A stretch of DNA of 64,000 nucleotides from an uncultured Gammaproteobacteria bacterium (GTDB lineage Bacteria > Patescibacteriota > Patescibacteriia > Magasanikbacterales > GWA2-37-8). This document shows positions 13,976 to 60,986 of this stretch, in pieces. Numbering within the stretch: position 1 is the stretch's first letter; each line of letters begins with the position of its first letter. The position numbers and the translations under genes were made by a program. The DNA lies in assembly GCA_964444705.1 (NCBI GenBank), contig CAYUHX010000001.1:17055-81054 (forward strand), given 5' to 3'. The notes beneath the pieces were generated by a model. That model was not told the DNA's origin. It made no database searches and worked only from the letters and a program-made list of their open reading frames with translations.

Positions 13976-14131
13976 ATGTTGACGAAGGCGCTCGCATGCC
14001 TCACTCTTCTAGCCCTGTTAGCGCAAAGCGCAGTGGCAGTGGCATGCAACTGTAACAAAAAAAGTCGCGATTATTGCGGCGACAACCAGTGCATGAAGAC
14101 GGAGTCAGACAAGCCAAGAAAGAAGAAATAG
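13976..14131 (+). CDS. small secreted Cys-rich peptide (51 aa), unannotated
   Basis: Strong SD GGAAGGAGGTG 6 nt upstream of the ATG. Signal peptide MLTKALACLTLLALLAQSAVAVA followed by CNCNKKSRDYCGDNQCMKTESDKPRKKK (4 Cys, basic tail). Followed by two hairpins (14196-14235 and 14262-14290). Confidence 0.4.
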   Translation: MLTKALACLTLLALLAQSAVAVACNCNKKSRDYCGDNQCMKTESDKPRKKK

Positions 14132-14261
14132 GCTTGTCTGATTCTGCTTCAAACCTCCACACAAACATCTTAAGCCCCACGCACCCTTCCTGTCTACTAT
14201 GAACGCGCCTGAAATCAAGCGCCTTCATAGTAGAACCCAACTTCAATCGTAAATAAAAGAG

Positions 14262-14290
14262 TTTTACAAAAAACTCTTTTATTATTTTAA
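14262..14290. terminator. bidirectional hairpin terminator between the small peptide ORF (+) and acylphosphatase (-)
   Basis: AAAAGAGTTTTacaaaAAACTCTTTT flanked by A/T runs on both sides. Confidence 0.5.
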
Positions 14291-23984: not shown

Positions 23985-24057
23985 GCGCCTGTAGCTCAGG
24001 GGTTAGAGCGCCACCCTTATAAGGTGGATGTCGATGGTTCAATTCCATCCAGGCGCA
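23985..24057 (+). tRNA. tRNA-Ile with anticodon UAU (TAT)
   Basis: Manual cloverleaf fold: 7-bp acceptor GCGCCTG/CAGGCGC, D-stem GCTC/GAGC, anticodon stem CCACC/GGTGG with loop CTTATAA (U33, anticodon TAT, A37), T-stem GATGG/CCATC with loop TTCAATT, discriminator A73. No CCA encoded. Candidate promoter TTGAAT-17-TAGACT about 60 nt upstream. Confidence 0.85.
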
Positions 24058-24083
24058 CATTTATTTTCTAATCACAGATTAAT

Positions 24084-26154: not shown

Positions 26155-26493
26155 ATGACTGAAGAAGCAAAAAATCTTACTTTTAAACCCGGAATGGTGG
26201 TAAAAGTGCACCAAAAAATCAAAGAATTTAACACCAAAGGTGAAGAAAAAGAGCGTATTCAAATCTATGAAGGTTTAATCATTGCCGCAAGCCATGGCAC
26301 AGAGGCTGGCGCAACCATTACCGTTCGCAAGGTATCTGAAGGAATTGGTGTTGAAAAAATATTTCCCATTCATTCTCCTGTCATTGCTAAAATAGAACCA
26401 GTACGTCAATTCAAAGTCCGTCGTGCGAAACTCAATTTCGTCCGCGATCCAAAATTCAAACGTAAAATGGACGAAGAAAAAATTGCCGCCTAG
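26155..26493 (+). CDS. rplS: 50S ribosomal protein L19
   Basis: FKPGMVVKVHQKIKEFNTKGEEKERIQIYEGLIIA and VRKVSEGIGVEKIFPIHSP are a canonical L19 pattern. Confidence 0.9.
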   Translation: MTEEAKNLTFKPGMVVKVHQKIKEFNTKGEEKERIQIYEGLIIAASHGTEAGATITVRKVSEGIGVEKIFPIHSPVIAKIEPVRQFKVRRAKLNFVRDPKFKRKMDEEKIAA

Positions 26494-26509
26494 CAAAGCA
26501 CACCAAATC

Positions 26510-26540
26510 AAAAAAACAGGGTTTAAACCCTGTTTTTTTG
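26510..26540 (+). terminator. rho-independent terminator after rplS
   Basis: AAAAAAACAGGGTTTAAACCCTGTTTTTTT, a perfect palindromic hairpin plus T-run. Confidence 0.65.
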
Positions 26541-26579
26541 ATAAGAAGAAGTTCACAAATAGGCATTGCCGTGATTATC

Positions 26580-42591: not shown

Positions 42592-43845
42592 CTAACGCTT
42601 TATTTTTCTCTTTGAACGATTAAAGGTAATTGCAAAACGATGTGCTTCATCACGCACACGAATGAGCGCCTCGCGATGGTGCGACACCCACGCCACGAGC
42701 GCCGGCTCCACACTCCCCAAAATAATATCGTTACGCTTTCGCTCTTTACCTTTAGCCAAACCTACTATGGGAATATCGACGTTTTTTGAACTAAGCACTT
42801 CTTTGGCACGATTCACCTGCGGTCGACCACCATCAATTAAAAAAAGAGTTGGCAACGGCCAATCAGCGTGTGCTAAACGACGATTCAACACCTCAGCTAA
42901 ACAATCTACATCACTCTGCCCCACTACTGTTTTAATGGTAAATTTTCGATAGGCTGCTTTAATTGGGCCATGCTCATCAGCAACCACCAAACTACCTACC
43001 TTGTCAGTGTCGCCCAAATTGGAAATATCATATCCTTCAATGCGATAATGATCTGCTTCATCGTTTGTCCCCGCGTGCTCTCTAAAAAATTCTTGATTTA
43101 AGAGAGCGACATCTTGAATACGATACAATGATTTTGATTGATCGCGCAGGCGCGCTGCTTCTTCAAAACGAAATTCTTTGGCTGCCAGCTTCATTTTATT
43201 TTCCCACTCTCGCACCAACTTCTTTTTTTCACCCTGTAAAAACAGCACCAGCGGCCGAATTACTTTTAACGCATAGTCGCGAGGACTAATTTCACCCGTA
43301 CAGACGCCCAGACACTCTTCCATCTGTCGATAGAGACAGGGCTTTAACGAAAGAGGTCGGCAACTCGAAAAACGAAATAATCGGCGAAGTAACTTCATGG
43401 TGGCCTTGGTATTGAGGCCAGGATACGGCCCGAACACATACTTGAAACCAGGCGGCACCTTTCCTTCTTCATGTGAAAGAAGACGCAGCTCGCGCTCACG
43501 AATAGTTTTCACCTGCGGATACAGCTCTTTCGTAATAATAATATAATTCCAACTTTTATCATCTTTACCAAGTACGTTGTATTTGGGTTGATTTTTTTTG
43601 ATGTACAACGCCTCTAAAATAATCGCCTCAAGCACTGATTCGGTTTCTTTCCACTCAATACGTGCCACCTCATGAATCATTTCTTCAATCGGCCGCGGCG
43701 TGCGTAGCCCACGAAAATAGCTTTGCACCCGGCTTTTAAGCGACGTTGCTTTACCCACATACACCAGCTCACCATCTTCAGAATAATACAAATAAATACC
43801 TGGGGCATCGGGTAATTTTTTAAAAACAGAATCAAATTTGTGCAT
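42592..43845 (-). CDS. uvrC: excinuclease ABC subunit C, compact form lacking the C-terminal (HhH)2 domain (417 aa)
   Basis: GIY-YIG N-terminus LPDAPGIYLYYSEDGELVYVGKATSLKSRVQSYF. UVR domain FRFEEAARLRDQ. RNase-H-like endonuclease domain RIEGYDISNLGDTDKVGSLVV...LIDGGRPQ. The frame ends before any helix-hairpin-helix pair. Confidence 0.85.
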   Translation of the reverse strand: MHKFDSVFKKLPDAPGIYLYYSEDGELVYVGKATSLKSRVQSYFRGLRTPRPIEEMIHEVARIEWKETESVLEAIILEALYIKKNQPKYNVLGKDDKSWNYIIITKELYPQVKTIRERELRLLSHEEGKVPPGFKYVFGPYPGLNTKATMKLLRRLFRFSSCRPLSLKPCLYRQMEECLGVCTGEISPRDYALKVIRPLVLFLQGEKKKLVREWENKMKLAAKEFRFEEAARLRDQSKSLYRIQDVALLNQEFFREHAGTNDEADHYRIEGYDISNLGDTDKVGSLVVADEHGPIKAAYRKFTIKTVVGQSDVDCLAEVLNRRLAHADWPLPTLFLIDGGRPQVNRAKEVLSSKNVDIPIVGLAKGKERKRNDIILGSVEPALVAWVSHHREALIRVRDEAHRFAITFNRSKRKIKR

Positions 43846-44082
43846 ACAATTTATGAGGTGACGGCGTCTTATTTATTTAATATTACGCCAAAAAAAAGCC
43901 CTTCGCAACCACTCCACGCATTTTTTCACTTTTAAAATTATCATAACTTCTATTTTTATATACAGATATCACCATGCTATCCTTGACAAGATTGAAAATA
44001 CATAGTATACTCACCCGTCAAGCGTAATTGCTTGATTGACTATTTTAAAGCTCGTTTACAACGGCCATTTAGATTACTACTC

Positions 44083-44211
44083 CTGATATCACCGTCGATA
44101 ATCAGAAATCAAAGAGACAAGAAACCGACATCCTGCTAGAATTTTCTACCTACTTACCTGTTTCGGATCTCTCCACACATGTTCATCGGGTTATCGACCG
44201 TGATATCAGAG
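44083..44211. repeat. 19-nt inverted repeat pair (CTGATATCACCGTCGATAA / TTATCGACCGTGATATCAG, 1 mismatch) bracketing about 90 nt of noncoding DNA
   Basis: Seen directly. A third half-site copy GATATCACC lies at about 43965. No ORF in the region. Confidence 0.4.
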
Positions 44212-44270
44212 TGTTTCTAAAAAAGCCTCTACGGAGTTTGGATTAAACAAATACTAAACCACTGGCTAAT

Positions 44271-44375
44271 CCCGACGATGGTAATCTGCGCTTGAATTTG
44301 AAAGGAACAAGGATCAAGGAACAAAGAGCAATTTGTCCTTTTTCCTTCACTCGAACTCACATTACCATCGTCGGG
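44271..44375 (+). promoter_or_regulatory. 15-bp perfect inverted repeat (CCCGACGATGGTAAT ... ATTACCATCGTCGGG) enclosing a 75-nt purine-rich spacer, at the low-GC/high-GC junction just upstream of the high-GC lipoprotein gene
   Basis: Seen directly. The right arm ends 40 nt before the ATG, and a strong SD GAGGAGG follows. Confidence 0.4.
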
Positions 44376-44415
44376 CACTTGCGCCCGTCGATCCCTACGT
44401 CCTGAGGAGGACCGC

Positions 44416-45105
44416 ATGAACCGCATCCGTCGCAACTCGTTCCTGTCCCGCTACCTGCTGGCCGCCAGCCTGGCCGCCAGCCCGCTGACCACCGGCTGCG
44501 GCACGCCCGAGCCCACCACCCCGGTGGCACCGCAGCCCAGCACCCTGGCCAAGGTGAGCCGGAAGATCCCCGCCGACGGGGAGACCACGGGCCGGAGCCC
44601 GCTGGTGGGGGCGCTGCTCGACCGGCAGGTCACCGTCGGCGTCGCCAGCTTCACCATCACCCCCCACGCCGACGGCACGGCCAACGCCGAGGCCGGCGCC
44701 GTCTTCTGGAAGCCCAATGCGGAGCTGAAGGCCGGCCAGCGGTACGAGTGGACCATGGTCTTCAACGACCGCGGCTACGAGACGACCCTGAAGGGCAACT
44801 TCACCGTGGCCAAGGACCCCCCGCCCGCGCCGATGGGCCCCCTGTGGGGGCTCTCTGAGGGCACCCTGGGTGGGGCCACCAAGCAGTTCACCTGCAGCGG
44901 TACCCACGCCGGCCAGTACTACCTGACGGTCACCAAGGCCGGTGACGGCGCGCTGATCTGGGGCCAGAAGGTGGGCGGCTTCGGGCAGGAGTTCTACTAC
45001 ATCAACTCCCAGGACCTGGCGGCCACGTACCTCCAGACGGGCATCGTCTCGGGGATCACCTTCAGCGCCGAGGGCCTGCAGGAGGGTACCACCACCTGCA
45101 AGTAG
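44416..45105 (+). CDS. lipoprotein of unknown function encoded in a high-GC (about 70%) island
   Basis: SD GAGGAGG 6 nt upstream of the ATG. Signal peptide plus lipobox LAASLAASPLTTGC. GC3-rich codon usage unlike neighbouring genes. Downstream hairpin terminator at 45276-45312. Confidence 0.7.
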   Translation: MNRIRRNSFLSRYLLAASLAASPLTTGCGTPEPTTPVAPQPSTLAKVSRKIPADGETTGRSPLVGALLDRQVTVGVASFTITPHADGTANAEAGAVFWKPNAELKAGQRYEWTMVFNDRGYETTLKGNFTVAKDPPPAPMGPLWGLSEGTLGGATKQFTCSGTHAGQYYLTVTKAGDGALIWGQKVGGFGQEFYYINSQDLAATYLQTGIVSGITFSAEGLQEGTTTCK

Positions 45106-45275
45106 CGGCGCTGCCGCCCGACCCGCGGCGGCGCACACCGGCCATCAAATCGCTTGATCCACCGCTCCGTTCCGCAGCCCCCGCTCGCCTAAACCTGCTC
45201 GCCCACTTCGGTGCGAACAGCGGTGCGAGGGGGGCCTGCATCTGTTGAATAAAAGAACTGTCTTTTGTTCATAGA

Positions 45276-45312
45276 ACACACAATCCCGATACCCCTCGGG
45301 ATTTTGTGTTTT
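45276..45312 (+). terminator. rho-independent terminator closing the high-GC island
   Basis: ACACACAATCCCGAtaccccTCGGGATTTTGTGTTTT. Confidence 0.6.
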
Positions 45313-45498
45313 AAATAATTTTTTAACTAAATTTTTTTCTTTACACCCACATGGCGGAATTTGGGCTTGGGCTCAAATTTTTTCCTTTATCCTTTTTCTT
45401 TTTTCCTTCACCCACCTAATAGCCAAACCCCTTCAATTACGCTATACTATTTCTATTCCCGCACTGATTTTACCTCACTCACCTACTCTCCATTTCAT

Positions 45499-46455
45499 AT
45501 GCCTACTTTTCTCGAAGATGTAAAAGTGCCTGCCTCGCAACAATCATCTCAAAAAAAAGGGCCAGAAAAATTTGAACATTACATCAATGCCGGTGGTGGC
45601 CTCAGCAATAAAAATCTTAAATACGCACTGTGGTTTACTGAGAACAAATTGCTACTCTATCGTCTCTTGCTCGGCTTCATTGGTTTTTGGTGTGTATTAT
45701 TTTGGGGCTACACTCTTTTTAATGTAGGTGATTATCTCATTTTTGGATTACGTGCCGATCAAAATCTGGCTCGTGAAATGTCGTACTTTCCTAACTACAC
45801 CCTCATCAACACTCGCCTCTCACCTGAACTACCAAAAATAATAAGCACTCAAGCATTGCCAAGCGGCACTGATAAATACGACCTCGTTGCGGAAGTGGCC
45901 AACACCAACGAGCGTTTCCTTGTTACTTTTGATTATTATTTCAATTTGAACAATGGCAAAAGTGAAAAACAGCATGGTTTTCTTCTCCCAGGTGAAAACA
46001 AATTTCTCACCCTGCTTGGAGTGAAAAACGCTGATTTTTCTGGCGGCGACGTGCAAATTAGTTTTGATAATTTTGTCTGGAAACGCGTGAATGCGCATGA
46101 AATAAAAAACACCACACAGTGGCAAAGCGAACGCTTAAACTTTACCACCGATAATTTTGCACTCATCCGCACCACTAACCCCGACTCTGGCGCACACGCT
46201 GATCGCGTTACATTCAAACTCACGAACAACAGCCCCTATTCATTCAAGGCGCCTTTTTTTTACATCGCCCTCTATTTTCAACAAAGTTTGGTGGGCATTT
46301 TGCCGCTCGAGCTCACCAGCTTTGGCTCGCTCGAAACCAAAGCAATTGATGTACGGGTCTTTACTCCCAACATTAATGTGAGTGATGTGGTGGTTTATCC
46401 ACTCATCAATGTGTATGATTCCGAAGAATACGTAAAAGCCACGGCTAGCTCTTAA
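45499..46455 (+). CDS. hypothetical single-pass membrane protein with extracytoplasmic domain (start at MPTFLEDV)
   Basis: TM LLLYRLLLGFIGFWCVLFWGYTLF, then about 230 aa of beta-rich sequence. Immediately upstream of the SEDS gene, with the same orientation. Confidence 0.5.
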   Translation: MPTFLEDVKVPASQQSSQKKGPEKFEHYINAGGGLSNKNLKYALWFTENKLLLYRLLLGFIGFWCVLFWGYTLFNVGDYLIFGLRADQNLAREMSYFPNYTLINTRLSPELPKIISTQALPSGTDKYDLVAEVANTNERFLVTFDYYFNLNNGKSEKQHGFLLPGENKFLTLLGVKNADFSGGDVQISFDNFVWKRVNAHEIKNTTQWQSERLNFTTDNFALIRTTNPDSGAHADRVTFKLTNNSPYSFKAPFFYIALYFQQSLVGILPLELTSFGSLETKAIDVRVFTPNINVSDVVVYPLINVYDSEEYVKATASS

Positions 46456-46473
46456 GGCACCGTATATTGTTTT

Positions 46474-47577
46474 ATGGACTTACGGAAACTTTCTCCGCGC
46501 AGTTTTGATTGGACACTTCTTCTCGCTGTACTTCTTCTTTTCTCTATCGGCCTCGAAGCCATCTACAGCGTTGATCTTTCACGCGGTGGCGAACTTATAC
46601 TCTTCAAAAAACAACTCTTGGCAGCCGGCATTGGCCTTATTTTGTTTTTTTTAACGAGTCTCACCAACTATTCTTTTTTTCGATCGATTAGTAAAGGCGT
46701 CTATTTACTCTCTGGCAGTTTATTATTTTTGGTTTTGTTTTTAGGTAAAACTATTCGCGGCACGAAGGGCTGGTTTGTGTTTGGTGGGTTTTCTTTTCAA
46801 CCCGTTGAACTCGCCAAACTCGGCCTTATTCTCATGCTCGCCTATATCATTGCCAATTTTGGTCGCCGCTTTGAGCGGCCGCTGTTCTTTTTTGGCACGG
46901 GTATTTTGACCGCTCTTTACATGGTGCTCGTCATGGGCCAACCCGATCTTGGTTCCGCAATTTTACTCGGCCTCATTTGGTTTGGGCTCATGAATCTAGT
47001 CGGCGCAAGAAAATTATTTATCATTGGTCTTGTGGGCGTGGGCGTGCTTGGCGCCACTCTGGCATGGTTTACGGTGCTCAGTCAGCCAAGTCATGAATAC
47101 CAAAAAAAGCGCATTCTTACTTTTTTAAACCCCGAACTCGACACACTTGGTGCGGGTTACAACGTAGCTCAATCCACCATCGCGGTGGGTGCCGGCCAAC
47201 TGTTTGGGCGCGGCCTGGGGCGCGGCTCGCAAAGTCAACTCCGTTTTCTCCCTGAGGCACAGACCGATTTTGTTTTCTCAGTCATTGGTGAAGAACTCGG
47301 CTTTGTGGGCGCCTGTTTAGTACTCTTTCTCTATGGCCTCATTTTTTGGCGTCTCATTATTATTATGAAAAAAACCCAAGACGATTTTGTCTTGGGTGTG
47401 GTGGGTGGAGTGGTGATTATTTTTTTCAGCCAAATGATGTTTAATATTGGCGCAGAAATTGGCGTGCTGCCTCTTACCGGTGTCACCGTGCCGTTTGTCA
47501 GCTACGGAGGATCATCACTCATTGTTGATTTTATTATGATTGGCCTCGCGGAGAGTATGGTGGAGAAGAGATATTAA
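46474..47577 (+). CDS. ftsW: SEDS-family peptidoglycan glycosyltransferase (FtsW/RodA)
   Basis: Ten-TM profile. Conserved FVSYGGSSLIVDFIMIGLA C-terminus and the PEAQTDFVFSVIGEELGFVGA segment. Confidence 0.85.
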   Translation: MDLRKLSPRSFDWTLLLAVLLLFSIGLEAIYSVDLSRGGELILFKKQLLAAGIGLILFFLTSLTNYSFFRSISKGVYLLSGSLLFLVLFLGKTIRGTKGWFVFGGFSFQPVELAKLGLILMLAYIIANFGRRFERPLFFFGTGILTALYMVLVMGQPDLGSAILLGLIWFGLMNLVGARKLFIIGLVGVGVLGATLAWFTVLSQPSHEYQKKRILTFLNPELDTLGAGYNVAQSTIAVGAGQLFGRGLGRGSQSQLRFLPEAQTDFVFSVIGEELGFVGACLVLFLYGLIFWRLIIIMKKTQDDFVLGVVGGVVIIFFSQMMFNIGAEIGVLPLTGVTVPFVSYGGSSLIVDFIMIGLAESMVEKRY

Positions 47578-48038
47578 GAATTTTGAATCGCATATAACGT
47601 GCGAAGAGCATCTATCTGCTTATCTAAAAGAAGTTTCTGTACTTTACTATTAAGATCATTTTTTGAATCGATCAGATGCTCAAGCTCTACACTTTGTTTC
47701 AGTAAAGGACGAAGTATTTCTGCAAAATCAATTGTGGCCAACGCAGCCGCATTTTCAAAATGCGCTGTTTCAAGGGCTTTTTTTAAGGCTTCTCTTAACT
47801 TAGGTTTTGAAGTACCTTTATATTCTGGCATGCGCTCCATTAATCTTACCCATCCCTCAAAAGTTTCTTGCACCTCTTCTACAAAATCAGGATTACCCGA
47901 TACATCAATCATATTTAACAACTGAGTTTTTCCTTCTTTGCCATCTTTTGACCCATTATCACCACGACCCTTTACATCAATAATGGGAAAACCACCCATA
48001 CGAGTTTCTTTAGATGAAGGTTGATGTTGAGAAAGCAT
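47574..48038 (-). CDS. hypothetical protein (154 aa)
   Basis: Open frame convergent with ftsW. Confidence 0.45.
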   Translation of the reverse strand: MLSQHQPSSKETRMGGFPIIDVKGRGDNGSKDGKEGKTQLLNMIDVSGNPDFVEEVQETFEGWVRLMERMPEYKGTSKPKLREALKKALETAHFENAAALATIDFAEILRPLLKQSVELEHLIDSKNDLNSKVQKLLLDKQIDALRTLYAIQNS

Positions 48039-48202
48039 ACTATTTTAGTAATTAATGATTAAATTTATAGTACTATAATACCACAAAAACTGCATTTTGT
48101 CAAGCTAAAATTTAGCTAAATTTAGATAAAAATAGCGTACTGTTCGCAAATAAACACCCAAACCAGTGGACACTCCGCCCCAAAATGATAGACTACTTTT
48201 CT

Positions 48203-50281
48203 ATGCCTTTTAAACTTGTTTCTTCCTACCAACCATCGGGTGACCAACCAAAAGCCATTGATCAGCTTGTCTCTGGCTTAAAACAAGGGTTTAAAAAACA
48301 AACCCTGCTTGGTGTTACTGGCTCTGGCAAAACGTTTACCATGGCAAACGTGATTACCAAGCTGCAACGACCAACTTTAGTGATCGCTCACAATAAAACC
48401 TTGGCTGCCCAACTGTGCAACGAATTTCGTGAATTTTTTCCCGAAAATGCAGTGGAATATTTTGTCAGTTACTACGATTATTATCAGCCTGAGGCCTACA
48501 TGCCGCACAGCGATACCTATATTGAAAAAGAGGCGCAAATCAACCAAGAAATTGATCGCTTGCGCCACGCCTGCACCCAAGCCCTACTCACCCGTGAAGA
48601 TGTGATTATTGTGGCGTCGGTATCAGCCATTTACGGTTTGGGTTCACCAAAAGAATACGAACAAATCGTCCTCCACGTGCGCGTGGGAGAGCTCCTTAAT
48701 CGGCGCGACATGCTCGAACACCTCATCAGCATGCAATTTGAACGCACCAATCTTGAGTTAACCCGCGGCTCATTTCGCCTCACCGGCCAAGTGATTGAGG
48801 TAATGCCAGTCAACGAAGAAATGATTTATCGCCTCGAAATAGGCAATACTATTAATAACATTGAAATCATTGACCCAGTGACTCGTAAATTACGCCACAC
48901 CGTCAACGACGCCTGGTTCTTTCCTGCGAAACATTACGTCGTGGGCGAACAAGCAAAAGCGCACGCCATTGAAACAATTCAAACTGAATTGACGGAACAG
49001 CTGGCTGCCTTTGAACGACAGGGAAAAGTACTTGAGCATGAACGGTTAAAACGCCGAGTGAGTTATGATCTTGAACTTATTCGCAATCTTGGTTATTGCA
49101 ATGGCATTGAAAATTATTCCCGCCATTTTGATGGCCGCGCCGAGGGCGAGCCGCCGTTTAGTCTGCTTGACTATTTTACCCACGGTGCACGTACATTTCT
49201 CACCATTATCGATGAATCACACGTCACGTTACCCCAGCTTCGTGCGATGTATGCCGGCGACAGAGCCCGCAAAGAAACATTGGTTGAACACGGGTTTCGT
49301 TTACCAAGCGCCAAAGACAATCGTCCGCTCACCTACCCTGAGTTTGAAGCACGCACCGAAGGAGTGATATATGTTTCCGCCACACCAACTGAATATGAAA
49401 TAGCAGAAAGTGCCCAGGTGGTAGAACAGGTGGTGCGCCCCACTGGTCTTATTGACCCGGAAGTGCTCATCTGCCCCATCACTGGCCTCGGCAATCTTTC
49501 ACAAATTGAAGATCTTTTGGTGCGCATTGAGGCACGGATCAAAAAAAATGAACGTGTGCTCGTAACCACACTCACCAAACGTATGGCCGAAGACCTCACC
49601 GATTATTTACATGAGAAAAAAATTAAAGTGAGCTACCTTCACAGCGATATCAAAACTCTTGAGCGGGTGGAAACAATTATGAATTTACGCTTGGGAAAAA
49701 TTGATGTGCTGGTAGGTGTCAACCTGCTCCGCGAAGGCCTTGATATGCCTGAGGTGTCCCTCGTTGCCATTCTTGATGCGGATAAAGAAGGTTTTCTGCG
49801 CAGTGAAACCAGCTTAATTCAAACCATAGGCCGCGCGGCCCGCAATGTAAATGGGCAGGTTGTGTTGTATGCAGATCACTCCACTGGCTCGATTGAGCGA
49901 GCAGTGGCTGAAACGAATCGTCGCCGTGCCATTCAACTCGCCTACAATACGGAACATGGCATCACTCCGAAAACAATTGAAAAAACAATTCGAAATATTT
50001 TGGAAGAGTTTGGTATTTCTGAAAAGAATAAGGAGCATGGAACAAGGAACAAAAAAAACCACACACTCAGCACTACCGATCTCGATTTACTCGGCGATGC
50101 CAGACCACTTAAAGACATTATCAAAGACAAAGAGGCGCAGATGAAAGAAGCGGCGCGCACATTAGAATTTGAGCTGGCTGCAATTTTGCGTGATGAGGTG
50201 CGTGAACTCACTGCTCGACTTAAAACTGGCGAGAAAACGACTCATCAAAAAAAATCTACTCCCCGACGAAAAAAAATATGA
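48203..50281 (+). CDS. uvrB: excinuclease ABC subunit B
   Basis: N-terminus MPFKLVSSYQPSGDQPKAIDQLVSGL. Walker A TLLGVTGSGKTFT. Helicase motifs. C-terminal UVR domain LEFELAAILRDEVRELTARL. Confidence 0.92.
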   Translation: MPFKLVSSYQPSGDQPKAIDQLVSGLKQGFKKQTLLGVTGSGKTFTMANVITKLQRPTLVIAHNKTLAAQLCNEFREFFPENAVEYFVSYYDYYQPEAYMPHSDTYIEKEAQINQEIDRLRHACTQALLTREDVIIVASVSAIYGLGSPKEYEQIVLHVRVGELLNRRDMLEHLISMQFERTNLELTRGSFRLTGQVIEVMPVNEEMIYRLEIGNTINNIEIIDPVTRKLRHTVNDAWFFPAKHYVVGEQAKAHAIETIQTELTEQLAAFERQGKVLEHERLKRRVSYDLELIRNLGYCNGIENYSRHFDGRAEGEPPFSLLDYFTHGARTFLTIIDESHVTLPQLRAMYAGDRARKETLVEHGFRLPSAKDNRPLTYPEFEARTEGVIYVSATPTEYEIAESAQVVEQVVRPTGLIDPEVLICPITGLGNLSQIEDLLVRIEARIKKNERVLVTTLTKRMAEDLTDYLHEKKIKVSYLHSDIKTLERVETIMNLRLGKIDVLVGVNLLREGLDMPEVSLVAILDADKEGFLRSETSLIQTIGRAARNVNGQVVLYADHSTGSIERAVAETNRRRAIQLAYNTEHGITPKTIEKTIRNILEEFGISEKNKEHGTRNKKNHTLSTTDLDLLGDARPLKDIIKDKEAQMKEAARTLEFELAAILRDEVRELTARLKTGEKTTHQKKSTPRRKKI

Positions 50282-51022: not shown

Positions 51023-51406
51023 TCACGAGGCGGCCTCCATGCTGCTGGTGGTAACGACCGGCGGCGCGGCCTCGTGGCGAACAGGCAGATGAGCGATGGC
51101 CGGCGGCGCGGCGGCGCGCCGCTTAGCCTCGTCGCGAAGGAAGTTGTCGGCCTGCACCCAGAGCGGTACGCCGATCATAAGGCCAACCCAGAGGCCGAGA
51201 CCACACCAGAACGCCCCAGTCATGGTGGCGTCGATGCCTAGCCCCAACTCGGGAACAATTTCGTTGTCGAGCTGGGTAGCTCGAATGAGATAGGCAAGCG
51301 CCCAGAGGACAAGTACCCACCCGATGACGGTAATGAACTGACCGATCGTCCTTTGGATCTTGGCCCGCGAACCGTTCTCGATCCGGATCATGTCTTTGAT
51401 CTTCAT
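51023..51406 (-). CDS. small two-TM membrane protein encoded in a high-GC (about 60%) island
   Basis: Hydrophobic helices VIGWVLVLWALAYLI and GAFWCGLGLWVGLMIGVPLW. Ala/Pro-rich tail. Composition differs sharply from its flanks. Confidence 0.5.
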   Translation of the reverse strand: MKIKDMIRIENGSRAKIQRTIGQFITVIGWVLVLWALAYLIRATQLDNEIVPELGLGIDATMTGAFWCGLGLWVGLMIGVPLWVQADNFLRDEAKRRAAAPPAIAHLPVRHEAAPPVVTTSSMEAAS

Positions 51407-54073: not shown

Positions 54074-54491
54074 GTCACACTGATTATTATTCTATGTACA
54101 AAAAGTATAGCACAAAAAACCCAATCAAACACGGCCCGAGCGATATCCCAACTTCTCCATCTCTCTTTTTAAAAAGAGAGGTAGAAAAGCTGACCGACGG
54201 CACCCGAAACCAACTGCTGTTGGTGGGTGCCGTCGCTGTGTGTACTCCTAACAAACAAAAACGAAATGGATCAGACCACTGTAGCCTGCTCCGCGATCAG
54301 GGCGCGGAGTTCTGCGGCGTCTTTGGCCGCGGCGCGGATCTGGAGCTCCTCGAGCCGCTGGTGCCGCCGCCGCGTCGACCGTCGCACGAAGTTCTCCCAA
54401 TATCGCGGAAGCCGCTCGGGCGGCTTGGGCGCCGCTGGCGCCGCCGCTTTCGGCAACACCCGGTTGAGCCAACGGAGGTTGACCCAAAGGA

Positions 54492-56240
54492 TCACTGCCG
54501 ACACCAGGCACAACCCCACCAGGAGGAGGAAGAACCAGTGGTGGGGCCAGGGCTTCCAGAACCTCCCGAGCGCGGCGCGAGCTTGCTGACCAGCGCCAGC
54601 CCCATGGGGGACAGGCACAGCTCAGCCAGGGTGACGACGAAGTAGCTGCTGATGAGCCAGAGCGGGCTCACTCGGCCAGAGTTGCCACCGGCGAGCGAAC
54701 CCACCACCATGATCAGGTACGAGATGGCCGTAAGCACCATCCCAATGCCGATCTTGGCTGCGGTGGACGGCTGACGGCCGCGCTTCTCGAGGAAGACTCC
54801 GAAGAACCAGTTGAGAACTGGCGTCAGAGTCACGACGAAAAACGGGTTGACGCTATTGTAAACAATAGCGCCGGGCTTCCAGCCGAGGATGCTCTCGCGG
54901 GTGTGGTCGTCGGCCCAGAAGACCAAAACGCTGCCGTTCTGGTGAAACGCCGCCCAGAAAAAAATGACAATCACACAAATAACACTGATCGCGAGGATCC
55001 GTAGACCCTCGACGAGCGGCGGCTCGCGCGCGTCTTCGTATTCCTTGGGCAAGGGGACCCCAAGGACGGCCGCGACACTCGATCTCTGATCCGCCAGCTT
55101 GAACCAGCGGTAGCACGCGGCGGCGATGACGAAGCCGACCATCATGCCGACACCGGCCGCCGAGAATGCCGCCGCCCACCCGTAGTGCGCCACCATGTAG
55201 TCGGCAACAAAGGGGCTAAAAAATGCCCCAATGTTGACGCCCATGTAGAAGACGCTGAAGGCAGCGTCCCGCCGCGAATCGCCGGCGGGATACATGTTCC
55301 CCAGCATCGTCCCGATGCTGGGCTTGAACATGCCGTTCCCCAAGACGATGAGAATGATCGCCGTCCAGAGAAACTTGGGAGGAGCGCCGAGCGCGAAGTA
55401 GCCCACGGCCATGAGGGCCGCGCCGAAGAGCACCGCCTTCCGATAGCCCAGCCACCGGTCGGCGATGATGCCCCCGAAGAACGGGGCGAAATAGGTCAAC
55501 GCGATGAAGCTCCCATACGTACTCGAGGCTTCGGCCGCCGAGTACCCCAAGTGCTTCTTGAGGTACAAGGTGAAAATGGCCAGCATCAGGTAGTAGCCGA
55601 AGCGCTCCCACATCTCGACCATAAAAAACGCGTAGAGCTGACGCGGGTGCCGGGGACCAGAGGAGCGGCGGGTCGCGAGCTTGCTGAGGAGGCGAGCGAT
55701 CGGACGGAATGGCCAGTTCCGCCTGGTCACGGCCCAGTCATCGGCTAAGAGCCAACTCCAATACCGGAGCTCCGCCATGAGCTCGCCGATCCAGGGGTGC
55801 GCCTTGAGGAAGCGCGCCCGGCGGTAAGCCGCGATGCGAGCCTGCTGCGCCCTCCTCTCGGCGCGCTCCGCCTGCCGAATGGCGTTGATGCGGGCCGCGC
55901 CATCACGGCGGATCTGCTGGGCACGCTCGAACGCAGCGAAACGCGCGAGAAGCCGCTGCCACGGGGGCGACACGCCCGAGTGGACCAGCGCGTACGCCGC
56001 CCGCCCGGCGGTGAAAAACCAGAAGATGGCGGGCGCGACGAAGTTGAAAAACTCACGGGCCGGCGGGGCAAGCCGCTGCCGAACGGCGTCCACGGTCGCG
56101 AGCACGCGCCGTTTGACGCTGGCGAACGTCGCGGCCACCACGGTGAAAAATGCGATGATCTTGAGCACCACCCGCTCCTCGATGAGAAGCTGCGGAGCCG
56201 TCATAGTTGCCTTGGCCTGGATCGGACGCTTTCTCTTCAT
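54492..56240 (-). CDS. POT/PTR2-family proton-dependent oligopeptide transporter in a high-GC (about 65%) island, with an about 190-aa N-terminal extension and a probable 3' frameshift (continuation likely in frame 54271-54618)
   Basis: PTR2 signature FFMVEMWERFGYYLMLAIFTLYL, GGIIADRWLGYRKAVLFGAALMAVGYFALG and LAELCLSPMGLALVSKLAP. After KLAP the frame degenerates (SGGSGSPGPTTGSSSSWW) while the overlapping -frame reads a plausible TM (HHWFFLLLVGLCLVSAVILW). Confidence 0.7.
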   Translation of the reverse strand: MKRKRPIQAKATMTAPQLLIEERVVLKIIAFFTVVAATFASVKRRVLATVDAVRQRLAPPAREFFNFVAPAIFWFFTAGRAAYALVHSGVSPPWQRLLARFAAFERAQQIRRDGAARINAIRQAERAERRAQQARIAAYRRARFLKAHPWIGELMAELRYWSWLLADDWAVTRRNWPFRPIARLLSKLATRRSSGPRHPRQLYAFFMVEMWERFGYYLMLAIFTLYLKKHLGYSAAEASSTYGSFIALTYFAPFFGGIIADRWLGYRKAVLFGAALMAVGYFALGAPPKFLWTAIILIVLGNGMFKPSIGTMLGNMYPAGDSRRDAAFSVFYMGVNIGAFFSPFVADYMVAHYGWAAAFSAAGVGMMVGFVIAAACYRWFKLADQRSSVAAVLGVPLPKEYEDAREPPLVEGLRILAISVICVIVIFFWAAFHQNGSVLVFWADDHTRESILGWKPGAIVYNSVNPFFVVTLTPVLNWFFGVFLEKRGRQPSTAAKIGIGMVLTAISYLIMVVGSLAGGNSGRVSPLWLISSYFVVTLAELCLSPMGLALVSKLAPRSGGSGSPGPTTGSSSSWWGCAWCRQ

Positions 56241-60494: not shown

Positions 60495-60915
60495 CGCTCA
60501 TAACAGGTAATCGCCCCGACGTAAAGTCGGGGAGGAAAGTCCGAACACCCTACCCTCCGCCTCGTGCGGAGATTGAAAAAGGTAGTGGGTAACACCCACC
60601 CTTTGTTTCGTGAGGAGCAAGGCGGGACAGTGGCACAGAGACAATACTAACCAGTGCTTGGCACTGGCGAAAGGTGAAAAGTGTGAGGAGGTAAAAAATC
60701 TTCGGATTTCTTGCCACCCCACTCCTCGGCTGGCAACAGCCGAGTGTGCTAAACCCTACCTGGTGCAAGAGCAGCCCCAAATTCCCTTTATGGAATTTGT
60801 CGGAAAAGTTCGCTCGCACAGATTCCGTCAGCAATGCCGGAGCCAGAGAAATGATTACCACTCCCCCATCTAAAAAATGGTGGAGCACAAAATTCGGCTT
60901 ATCGTTATGAGCATC
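60495..60915 (+). ncRNA. rnpB: RNase P RNA (bacterial type A-like)
   Basis: Conserved P4 5' strand GGAGGAAAGTCCGAACAC and 3' strand ACAAAATTCGGCTTATCG, with compensatory CCGAA/TTCGG changes relative to the common CCGGG/CCCGG. P1 closing helix GCTCATAAC...GTTATGAGC. GGTAACACCC (P10-P12 region) present. Only short spurious ORFs overlap. Confidence 0.85.
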
Positions 60916-60986
60916 CTAAAACCTCTCTTCCTCAGAGAGGTTTTAGTTTGACGATGAACCGCTTTAGGCATAAAATAGCTCGTACT

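Follow-up and report, generated by a model that had tools for sequence, protein, structure and literature searches.

The locus considered here raises a simple question: does the perfect inverted repeat that abuts a foreign lipoprotein gene record how that gene arrived, or does it belong to the RNA from which the gene would now be expressed? The original prediction had offered both readings, a regulatory RNA stem in the 5' UTR of the lipoprotein mRNA and a recombination or insertion-site footprint of the acquired segment. The window, by which we mean the whole 64-kb stretch of DNA that was analysed, comes from Candidatus Magasanikbacteria (Patescibacteria/CPR) and has a GC content of 44.7%. Its genes are housekeeping genes, including aspS or a relative of it, gap, gyrB, nusG, L11, queA, uvrA, uvrB, uvrC, prfA and rodA.

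The arms of the repeat are exactly as first described. CCCGACGATGGTAAT occupies positions 44271-44285 of the plus strand, its exact reverse complement occupies 44361-44375, and a spacer of 75 nt lies between them. We refer to the whole element, 44271-44375, as H2. The repeat finder extends the arms inward to 25 nt with 84% complementarity (44271-44295 and 44351-44375), and when one arm is aligned with the other, 38 of about 46 positions match, so the entire 105 nt of H2 is a single imperfect palindrome, which in the predicted fold closes on an apical loop of 13 nt. The left inner arm is rich in purines and contains AAGGA three times, and pyrimidines prevail in the right inner arm; the tandem purine-rich units noticed earlier in the spacer are indeed there, as AAGGAACAAGGATC and AAGGAACAAAGAGC (14 nt, 86%). 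First-order Markov simulations of the window (n=100) give a chance expectation of 0.01 per 64 kb for inverted repeats with perfect arms of 15 nt or more lying within 150 nt, and the window holds two such loci, H2 and the L19 terminator at 26507-26542. H2 is highly non-random.

Folding agrees with this. The plus strand of H2 has a minimum free energy (MFE) of -44.1 kcal/mol (z -7.1), and the minus strand folds slightly better, with -50.6 kcal/mol (z -8.1). Ranked by GC-corrected MFE among about 6400 sliding 110-nt windows, H2 comes third on the plus strand and first on the minus strand, and its companions at the top of the ranking are terminator clusters and RNase P. Pairing is perfect over the outer 15 nt and reaches about 75-80% over the inner 75 nt. 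Among the arm mismatches in the alignment, G-U-compatible changes are not in excess, and neither strand is preferred. The arms have 60% GC, against a lower GC content in the remainder of the leader, and in the fold 44261-44269 can form eight extra pairs with the initial 13 nt of the high-GC island.

A near-consensus sigma-70-type promoter, TTGACA-17-TATACT, is found on the plus strand at 43983-44011, 405 nt upstream of the lipoprotein ATG. It matches the consensus at 11 of 12 positions, which would place the transcript start near 44018. Only four matches of this quality exist in the window, all of them intergenic and all oriented towards genes. The other three belong to L19, L31 and p154 (a 154-aa gene) and end 23-37 nt ahead of the respective start codons, which argues that a match of this quality marks a real promoter in this organism. 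The predicted transcript would open with a small 8-bp stem-loop, P0 (44017-44036, plus strand), as a putative 5'-terminal hairpin. The first long hairpin, H1, follows at 44083-44209 on the same strand, with 24-nt arms of 88% complementarity, 79 nt between them, and pairing that continues with bulges to about 44068-44224 (MFE -37.1, z -4.9). The self-complementary octamer TGATATCA is present in each arm of H1, and a weak promoter-like site lies in its loop at 44114-44142 (GAGACA-17-TAGAAT, 9 of 12 matches, extended -10). H1 lies 61 nt upstream of H2, to which it has no sequence likeness.

Taken as a whole, the leader (44000-44420) folds with a z of -6.4, has a genome-like GC content of about 40%, and is roughly ten times as long as the other strong-promoter leaders in the window; those of L19 and L31, each with its promoter match, are short. 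The terminator scan found no terminator-like site between H1 and the ATG and did not call H2, which is followed by CACTTGCGCC and not by a U-tract, and transcription should therefore read through it. Two small leader ORFs, of 35 aa from a TTG at 44032 and of 37 aa from a TTG at 44292, have no support and were rejected as genes. When the 863-bp foreign block is taken out, the unit has no plus-strand ORF of at least 40 aa, and folding of the RNA reconstructed in this way retains all of the hairpins.

The foreign block itself, delimited by its GC profile and codon-position GC, extends over 863 bp of the plus strand (44376-45238). It is made up of a 40-nt GC-rich 5' UTR with a GGAGG, the lipoprotein ORF, and a 133-nt GC-rich 3' UTR. 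The ORF (44416-45105, plus strand) encodes 229 aa with the lipobox LTTGC, and its GC content at the three codon positions is 0.60, 0.54 and 0.97. Since native genes of the window have a GC3 of 0.23-0.48, the lipoprotein gene is a recent foreign acquisition. The sharp switch in composition that had been reported is also borne out: 30-nt windows pass from 0.40 GC at 44340 to 0.70 at 44370. Given a genome-like leader and an ORF with a GC3 of 0.97, the boundary falls at or just after 44375 and leaves H2 on the host side; a host-side H2 with the junction at its base is the simplest reading. It is implausible that the right arm came with the donor DNA, because a 15-nt complement would then have had to exist already in the host, 75 nt upstream, and a split of the two arms across the boundary is unlikely unless repair synthesis made one of them.

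The lipoprotein has no Pfam domain, and a word-index search returned no homologue. A full HMMER search gave three weak matches, the best of which (4e-13) falls on a domain that is repeated in a protein of 1045 aa. The AlphaFold model has a pLDDT of 37 and is unusable, and exact-protein look-ups of the lipoprotein, the flanking protein p318 and RodA gave no match. As an observation on translation signals, made by reading of the sequence and with no statistic attached, no Shine-Dalgarno sequence is visible in the native start regions at 26155 (L19), 36725 (L31), 43845 (uvrC) and 45499 (p318), and a strong GGAGG was noted on the foreign lipoprotein gene and on a small Cys-rich ORF. The latter, at 13976-14131 on the plus strand, encodes 51 aa with a signal peptide and a Cys-rich/Lys-rich tail, MLTKALACLTLLALLAQSAVAVACNCNKKSRDYCGDNQCMKTESDKPRKKK, matches nothing in Pfam, and has three strong hairpins after it; the region 14100-14290 is among the most structured of the window.

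On its far side the foreign block is followed, 7 nt past its end, by a low-GC stem-loop, T1 (45246-45271, plus strand), and then by an intrinsic terminator, T2 (45272-45313, plus strand), with 18-nt arms of 89% complementarity, a 6-nt loop and a T-rich run. The two together (45240-45330) fold with a z of -8.2, and the terminator scan called T2 at 45282-45303. T2 contains a stem of AATCCCGA and TCGGGATT. The original prediction had pointed to the recurrence of AATCCCGA at 45282-45289, and the octamer is present there; its five occurrences in the window compare with 2.2 expected, and five were reached in 8 of 100 shuffles, so that the recurrence is at chance level and a motif common to H2 and T2 was rejected. 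Direct repeats between the leader and the 3' UTR of the island (D16 and D17) were likewise set aside as lying, by our estimate, within chance expectation.

The explanation that we favour, and to which we would give a little less than an even chance, is that H2 is transcribed within a host-side, ORF-free structured leader, and that the 863-bp foreign fragment landed in that unit. In the proposed sequence of events the strong promoter would fire and the transcript would fold into the 5'-terminal P0 and then the two long imperfect hairpins, H1 and H2. It would continue without a terminator into the Shine-Dalgarno sequence and the lipoprotein ORF, and would end at T1 and T2. The original unit would have consisted of the promoter, about 360 nt of hairpins and the double terminator, and may have been a transcription unit for a non-coding RNA or else the untranslated remains of a gene that was lost. 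A fragment from a GC-rich donor would have integrated by illegitimate recombination in the unstructured linker between H2 and T1, and would thereby have come under a strong promoter and terminators of the host. Within the mRNA, H2 would be a double-stranded stem of about 40 bp, which could act as an RNase III-type substrate, could stabilise the mRNA or insulate the foreign translation start from the leader, or could do both. According to this explanation H2 is most likely neither donor DNA nor the end of a mobile element.

How far the RNA itself speaks for this explanation can be judged from several kinds of evidence. The predicted regulatory stem keeps its position between the promoter and the GGAGG and ATG, its expected read-through, and a fold beyond that of shuffled controls; what did not emerge is a strand preference in the arm mismatches. 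Position and thermodynamics fit an RNA stem and stop short of proving selection on the structure. No nucleotide homologue of the leader was found in 80 related uvrC loci (875 kb) or in p318 loci, and in these relatives the regions upstream of uvrC are short and have no long hairpins. At the gathering threshold, Rfam 15 identified only RNase P and one tRNA in the window, and at E values up to 10 it gave only sub-threshold noise in the region 43800-45400. SRP RNA and 6S RNA came into consideration because the structure is rod-like and the promoter strong; both were rejected because there is no Rfam hit, and for SRP RNA also because the conserved apical motifs are absent. The RNase P RNA is of bacterial class A (60495-60917, plus strand, 155.8 bits). 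A tRNA-Ile gene at 23985-24058 on the plus strand has the anticodon UAU, an uncommon bacterial means of reading AUA.

A more far-reaching form of the same idea is that P0, H1, H2, T1 and T2 together constitute an undescribed, structured and strongly expressed ncRNA gene of this Magasanikbacteria lineage, that the captured lipoprotein gene now uses the ncRNA promoter, and that at least three such captures of high-GC DNA, all recent, took place within 12 kb. We regard this as unlikely; were it so, the donor of the 863-bp fragment could possibly have been a GC-rich, Myxococcota-like neighbour. The lipoprotein block is one of three high-GC islets within 12 kb. The second, at 51023-51406 on the minus strand, is a 127-aa membrane-like ORF with a GC3 of 0.77, and the third, at 54271-56240 on the minus strand, comprises a 115-aa ORF and a 582-aa POT/MFS peptide transporter with GC3 values of 0.81-0.82. 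The best non-self matches of the transporter are 57% identical, those that are named carry the labels Myxococcales, Polyangia or Pseudomonadota, and the matches span only the C-terminal 62% of the protein, with about 200 N-terminal aa unmatched. Horizontal gene transfer into Patescibacteria from diverse donors is documented (PMC12455944), and together with the two further islets and the Myxococcota-type transporter matches it makes the uptake of foreign DNA plausible here. An assembly chimera was rejected, as the three islets lie on one 139-kb contig, each in a correct promoter and terminator context. At the junction, no shared k-mer exceeds about 15 nt.

The context outranks the hairpin in importance. 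Three unameliorated high-GC islets lie within 12 kb of a streamlined CPR genome of about 45% GC, and one of them sits inside an apparent native non-coding unit whose promoter looks as strong as those of ribosomal-protein genes. Should this be confirmed, the locus would show cleanly, in a natural setting, how a bacterium that is ultra-small and probably scavenges DNA places foreign genes under its own signals. Hints as to the neighbours or hosts of the organism could come from the composition of the donor DNA and from the Myxococcota-like transporter.

Fifteen perfect pairs and a palindrome running the whole length of the element exceed what most regulatory RNA stems need, and they fit a palindrome acting at the DNA level equally well. 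It is conceivable, if doubtful, that H1 and H2 are non-autonomous MITE-like palindromes in the manner of ERIC or Correia elements, that they inserted into a permissive stretch between genes, and that they stand beside the foreign gene by coincidence, even should one transcript include both them and the gene. Both are imperfect palindromes throughout their 105-160 bp and are best matched at the outer ends. Both have the terminal inverted repeats of such elements, with 15 perfect nt within 25 nt at 84% in H2 and 24 nt at 88% in H1. They are also adjacent to one another in an unusually long intergenic region, and the gene order around it differs from that of the relatives. In the latter, gyrB and p318-rodA are divergently oriented, and uvrB is followed on its own strand by uvrC-rsmE-bcp. 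Here, by comparison of 42592-50281 with the related loci L004-L113, the uvrC block is inverted and adjoins the leader, lipoprotein and p318 region, so that the intergenic region between uvrC and p318 is a lineage-specific rearrangement junction, a setting that would suit mobile palindromes. The relatives themselves are distant. UvrC is at most 66% identical across the 80 related MAG loci, most of which are titled Magasanikbacteria or Patescibacteria, the closest non-self homologue of p318 is 45% identical, and the nearest relatives overall are 45-66% identical at the protein level.

Long inverted repeats of unrelated sequence do occur sporadically in the related loci, 18 of them in 875 kb, or about one per 49 kb, which also accords with MITE-like palindromes. 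In one related genome (GCA_964533715.1, locus L111, 7768-7870) a hairpin of roughly 100 nt, its 21-nt arms matching at 86%, lies in the intergenic region upstream of the p318 homologue, which has a z of -5.9; it is unrelated in sequence to H1 and H2. What speaks against mobile palindromes is, for one, the lack of copies. Neither H1 nor H2 has a second copy in the 64-kb window, and phage and plasmid records contain no copy of either. The 15-mer of H2 recurs nowhere else in the window, and its closest look-alike, at 51320 inside another high-GC gene, has two mismatches and was rejected as a second copy because it is at chance level. In viral contigs the 15-mer was hit singly 29 times, which is the number expected by chance; none of these hits has the second arm, and the two-arm pattern is absent from that collection. 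In metagenome contigs the two-arm pattern recovered nine palindromes, eight in DNA of at least 55% GC and one locus at 44%, none of which resembles the interior of H2. A near-perfect, GC-rich palindrome of 104 nt was picked up by chance through the two-arm pattern in a 70% GC metagenome contig (Ga0137414_1165654, L115, 2033-2136; MFE -96.6 kcal/mol); it runs on into its flanks and shares only 11-nt ends with H2.

H1 and H2 are, moreover, dissimilar. Target-site duplications are absent from both: the best direct matches within the 12-nt flanks are 3-4 nt long and not adjacent to the ends, and the flanks of H1 continue the palindrome where direct repeats would be expected. A Pfam scan of the window ORFs detected no recombinase, integrase, transposase or reverse transcriptase domain; the missing transposase counts against MITE-like elements, and on the missing reverse transcriptase a retron ncRNA was rejected. 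An integron attC site was rejected on its core sites, since neither R'' (RYYYAAC) nor R' (GTTRRRY) is found within 25 nt of H1 or H2 in either orientation, and a lone GTTGAAT at 45244 has no partner core. The predicted recombination or insertion-site footprint accordingly drew support from none of the tests made of it, whether for copies, duplications, attC cores, recombinases or a shared motif.

A different link between H2 and the insertion would not require mobility. The hairpin could have stalled replication or been cleaved, giving a break that captured foreign DNA, or one arm could have been made by fold-back (template-switch) repair. We consider such a mechanistic tie improbable. In its favour, the perfect arm ends at 44375, exactly at the jump in GC content, at its far edge the block comes within 7 nt of the base of T1, and the 60% GC of the arms and the eight further pairs of 44261-44269 with the island start would be in keeping with it. 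A single recent inverted duplication would, however, be expected to decay uniformly, and the perfect outer 15 nt beside about 75-80% pairing within do not look like this; the edges of the block share a microhomology of only 4 nt (CATC). The coincidence of boundary and hairpin has a p of roughly 0.02-0.07 by our own estimate, and this value is subject to ascertainment. Hairpins cover more than half of the leader region, and an insertion inside a hairpin would erase that hairpin from view, which weakens the coincidence: a visible insertion in a region so packed with hairpins must abut the base of one. The gene boundaries of the other two islets carry hairpins too, as gene boundaries generally do.

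Very improbable, finally, is an invertible DNA switch (inverton) in H1, H2 or both, flipped by a recombinase to phase-vary the surface lipoprotein as in Clostridioides difficile cwpV: the leader of this surface-protein gene does contain short segments bounded by inverted repeats of 24-25 nt, and the spacer of H1 does contain its promoter-like site with an extended -10, but the segments between the arms are palindromic up to the apex, which invertons do not need and which would make inversion nearly silent, they are only 55-79 bp long and shorter than in the better-known examples, and no recombinase is encoded by the scanned window ORFs, though such enzymes can be encoded elsewhere in a genome. 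The UvrC look-up recovered a sole independent contig (L001; Logan SRR13287419, 1987 nt), which is identical through uvrC and the promoter. Its first position corresponds to 44022 of the window, a few bases past the predicted transcript start, and, ending before the repeats, it is silent on their orientation. The end of the contig at this point could reflect a coverage gap or population variation that begins there.

Set beside known systems, H1 and H2 resemble several and coincide with none. The cwpV switch of C. difficile is a leader-embedded invertible switch, and the likeness extends to inverted repeats of about 21-25 nt in a leader that connects a constitutive promoter to a surface-protein gene; unlike in cwpV, the inner segments of H1 and H2 are palindromic and very short, and no recombinase is nearby. 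Integron attC sites (57-141 nt) are, like H2, imperfect palindromes adjoining a foreign ORF that lacks a promoter of its own, and the boundary likewise falls at the hairpin base. They differ in their R' and R'' cores, which H1 and H2 do not have, and in the associated integrase, which the window lacks; H2, furthermore, lies upstream of the ORF and has host composition, and the 3' end of the block has no attC of its own. The palindromic intergenic MITE-like repeats include the ERIC/IRU elements of enterobacteria, of about 127 bp, and the Correia elements of Neisseria. With these H1 and H2 share their size of 105-160 bp, an imperfect palindrome over the whole length, an intergenic position, probable co-transcription with the neighbouring gene and, in H1, a possible internal promoter, whereas they are single-copy in the collections searched, have no target-site duplication and are unrelated to each other or to any sequence in those collections.

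Long stem-loops in bacterial 5' leaders, which stabilise the transcript or are processed by RNase III, are known from the 5' UTR hairpins of ompA and from the leader stems of rnc and pnp in E. coli. H2 differs from these in being longer, with about 40 bp and 15 perfect pairs, and it has no homology to them; since the downstream lipoprotein gene is foreign, the leader moreover did not evolve together with the gene that it now precedes. In other respects H2 resembles them. It lies between a promoter and a start codon, forms a long and nearly continuous stem, and has no terminator tail, and P0 would supply the hairpin that such leaders have at the 5' terminus of the transcript. H2 by itself, an element with no detectable relatives, is of an ordinary kind, either a long leader stem or a palindromic intergenic element.
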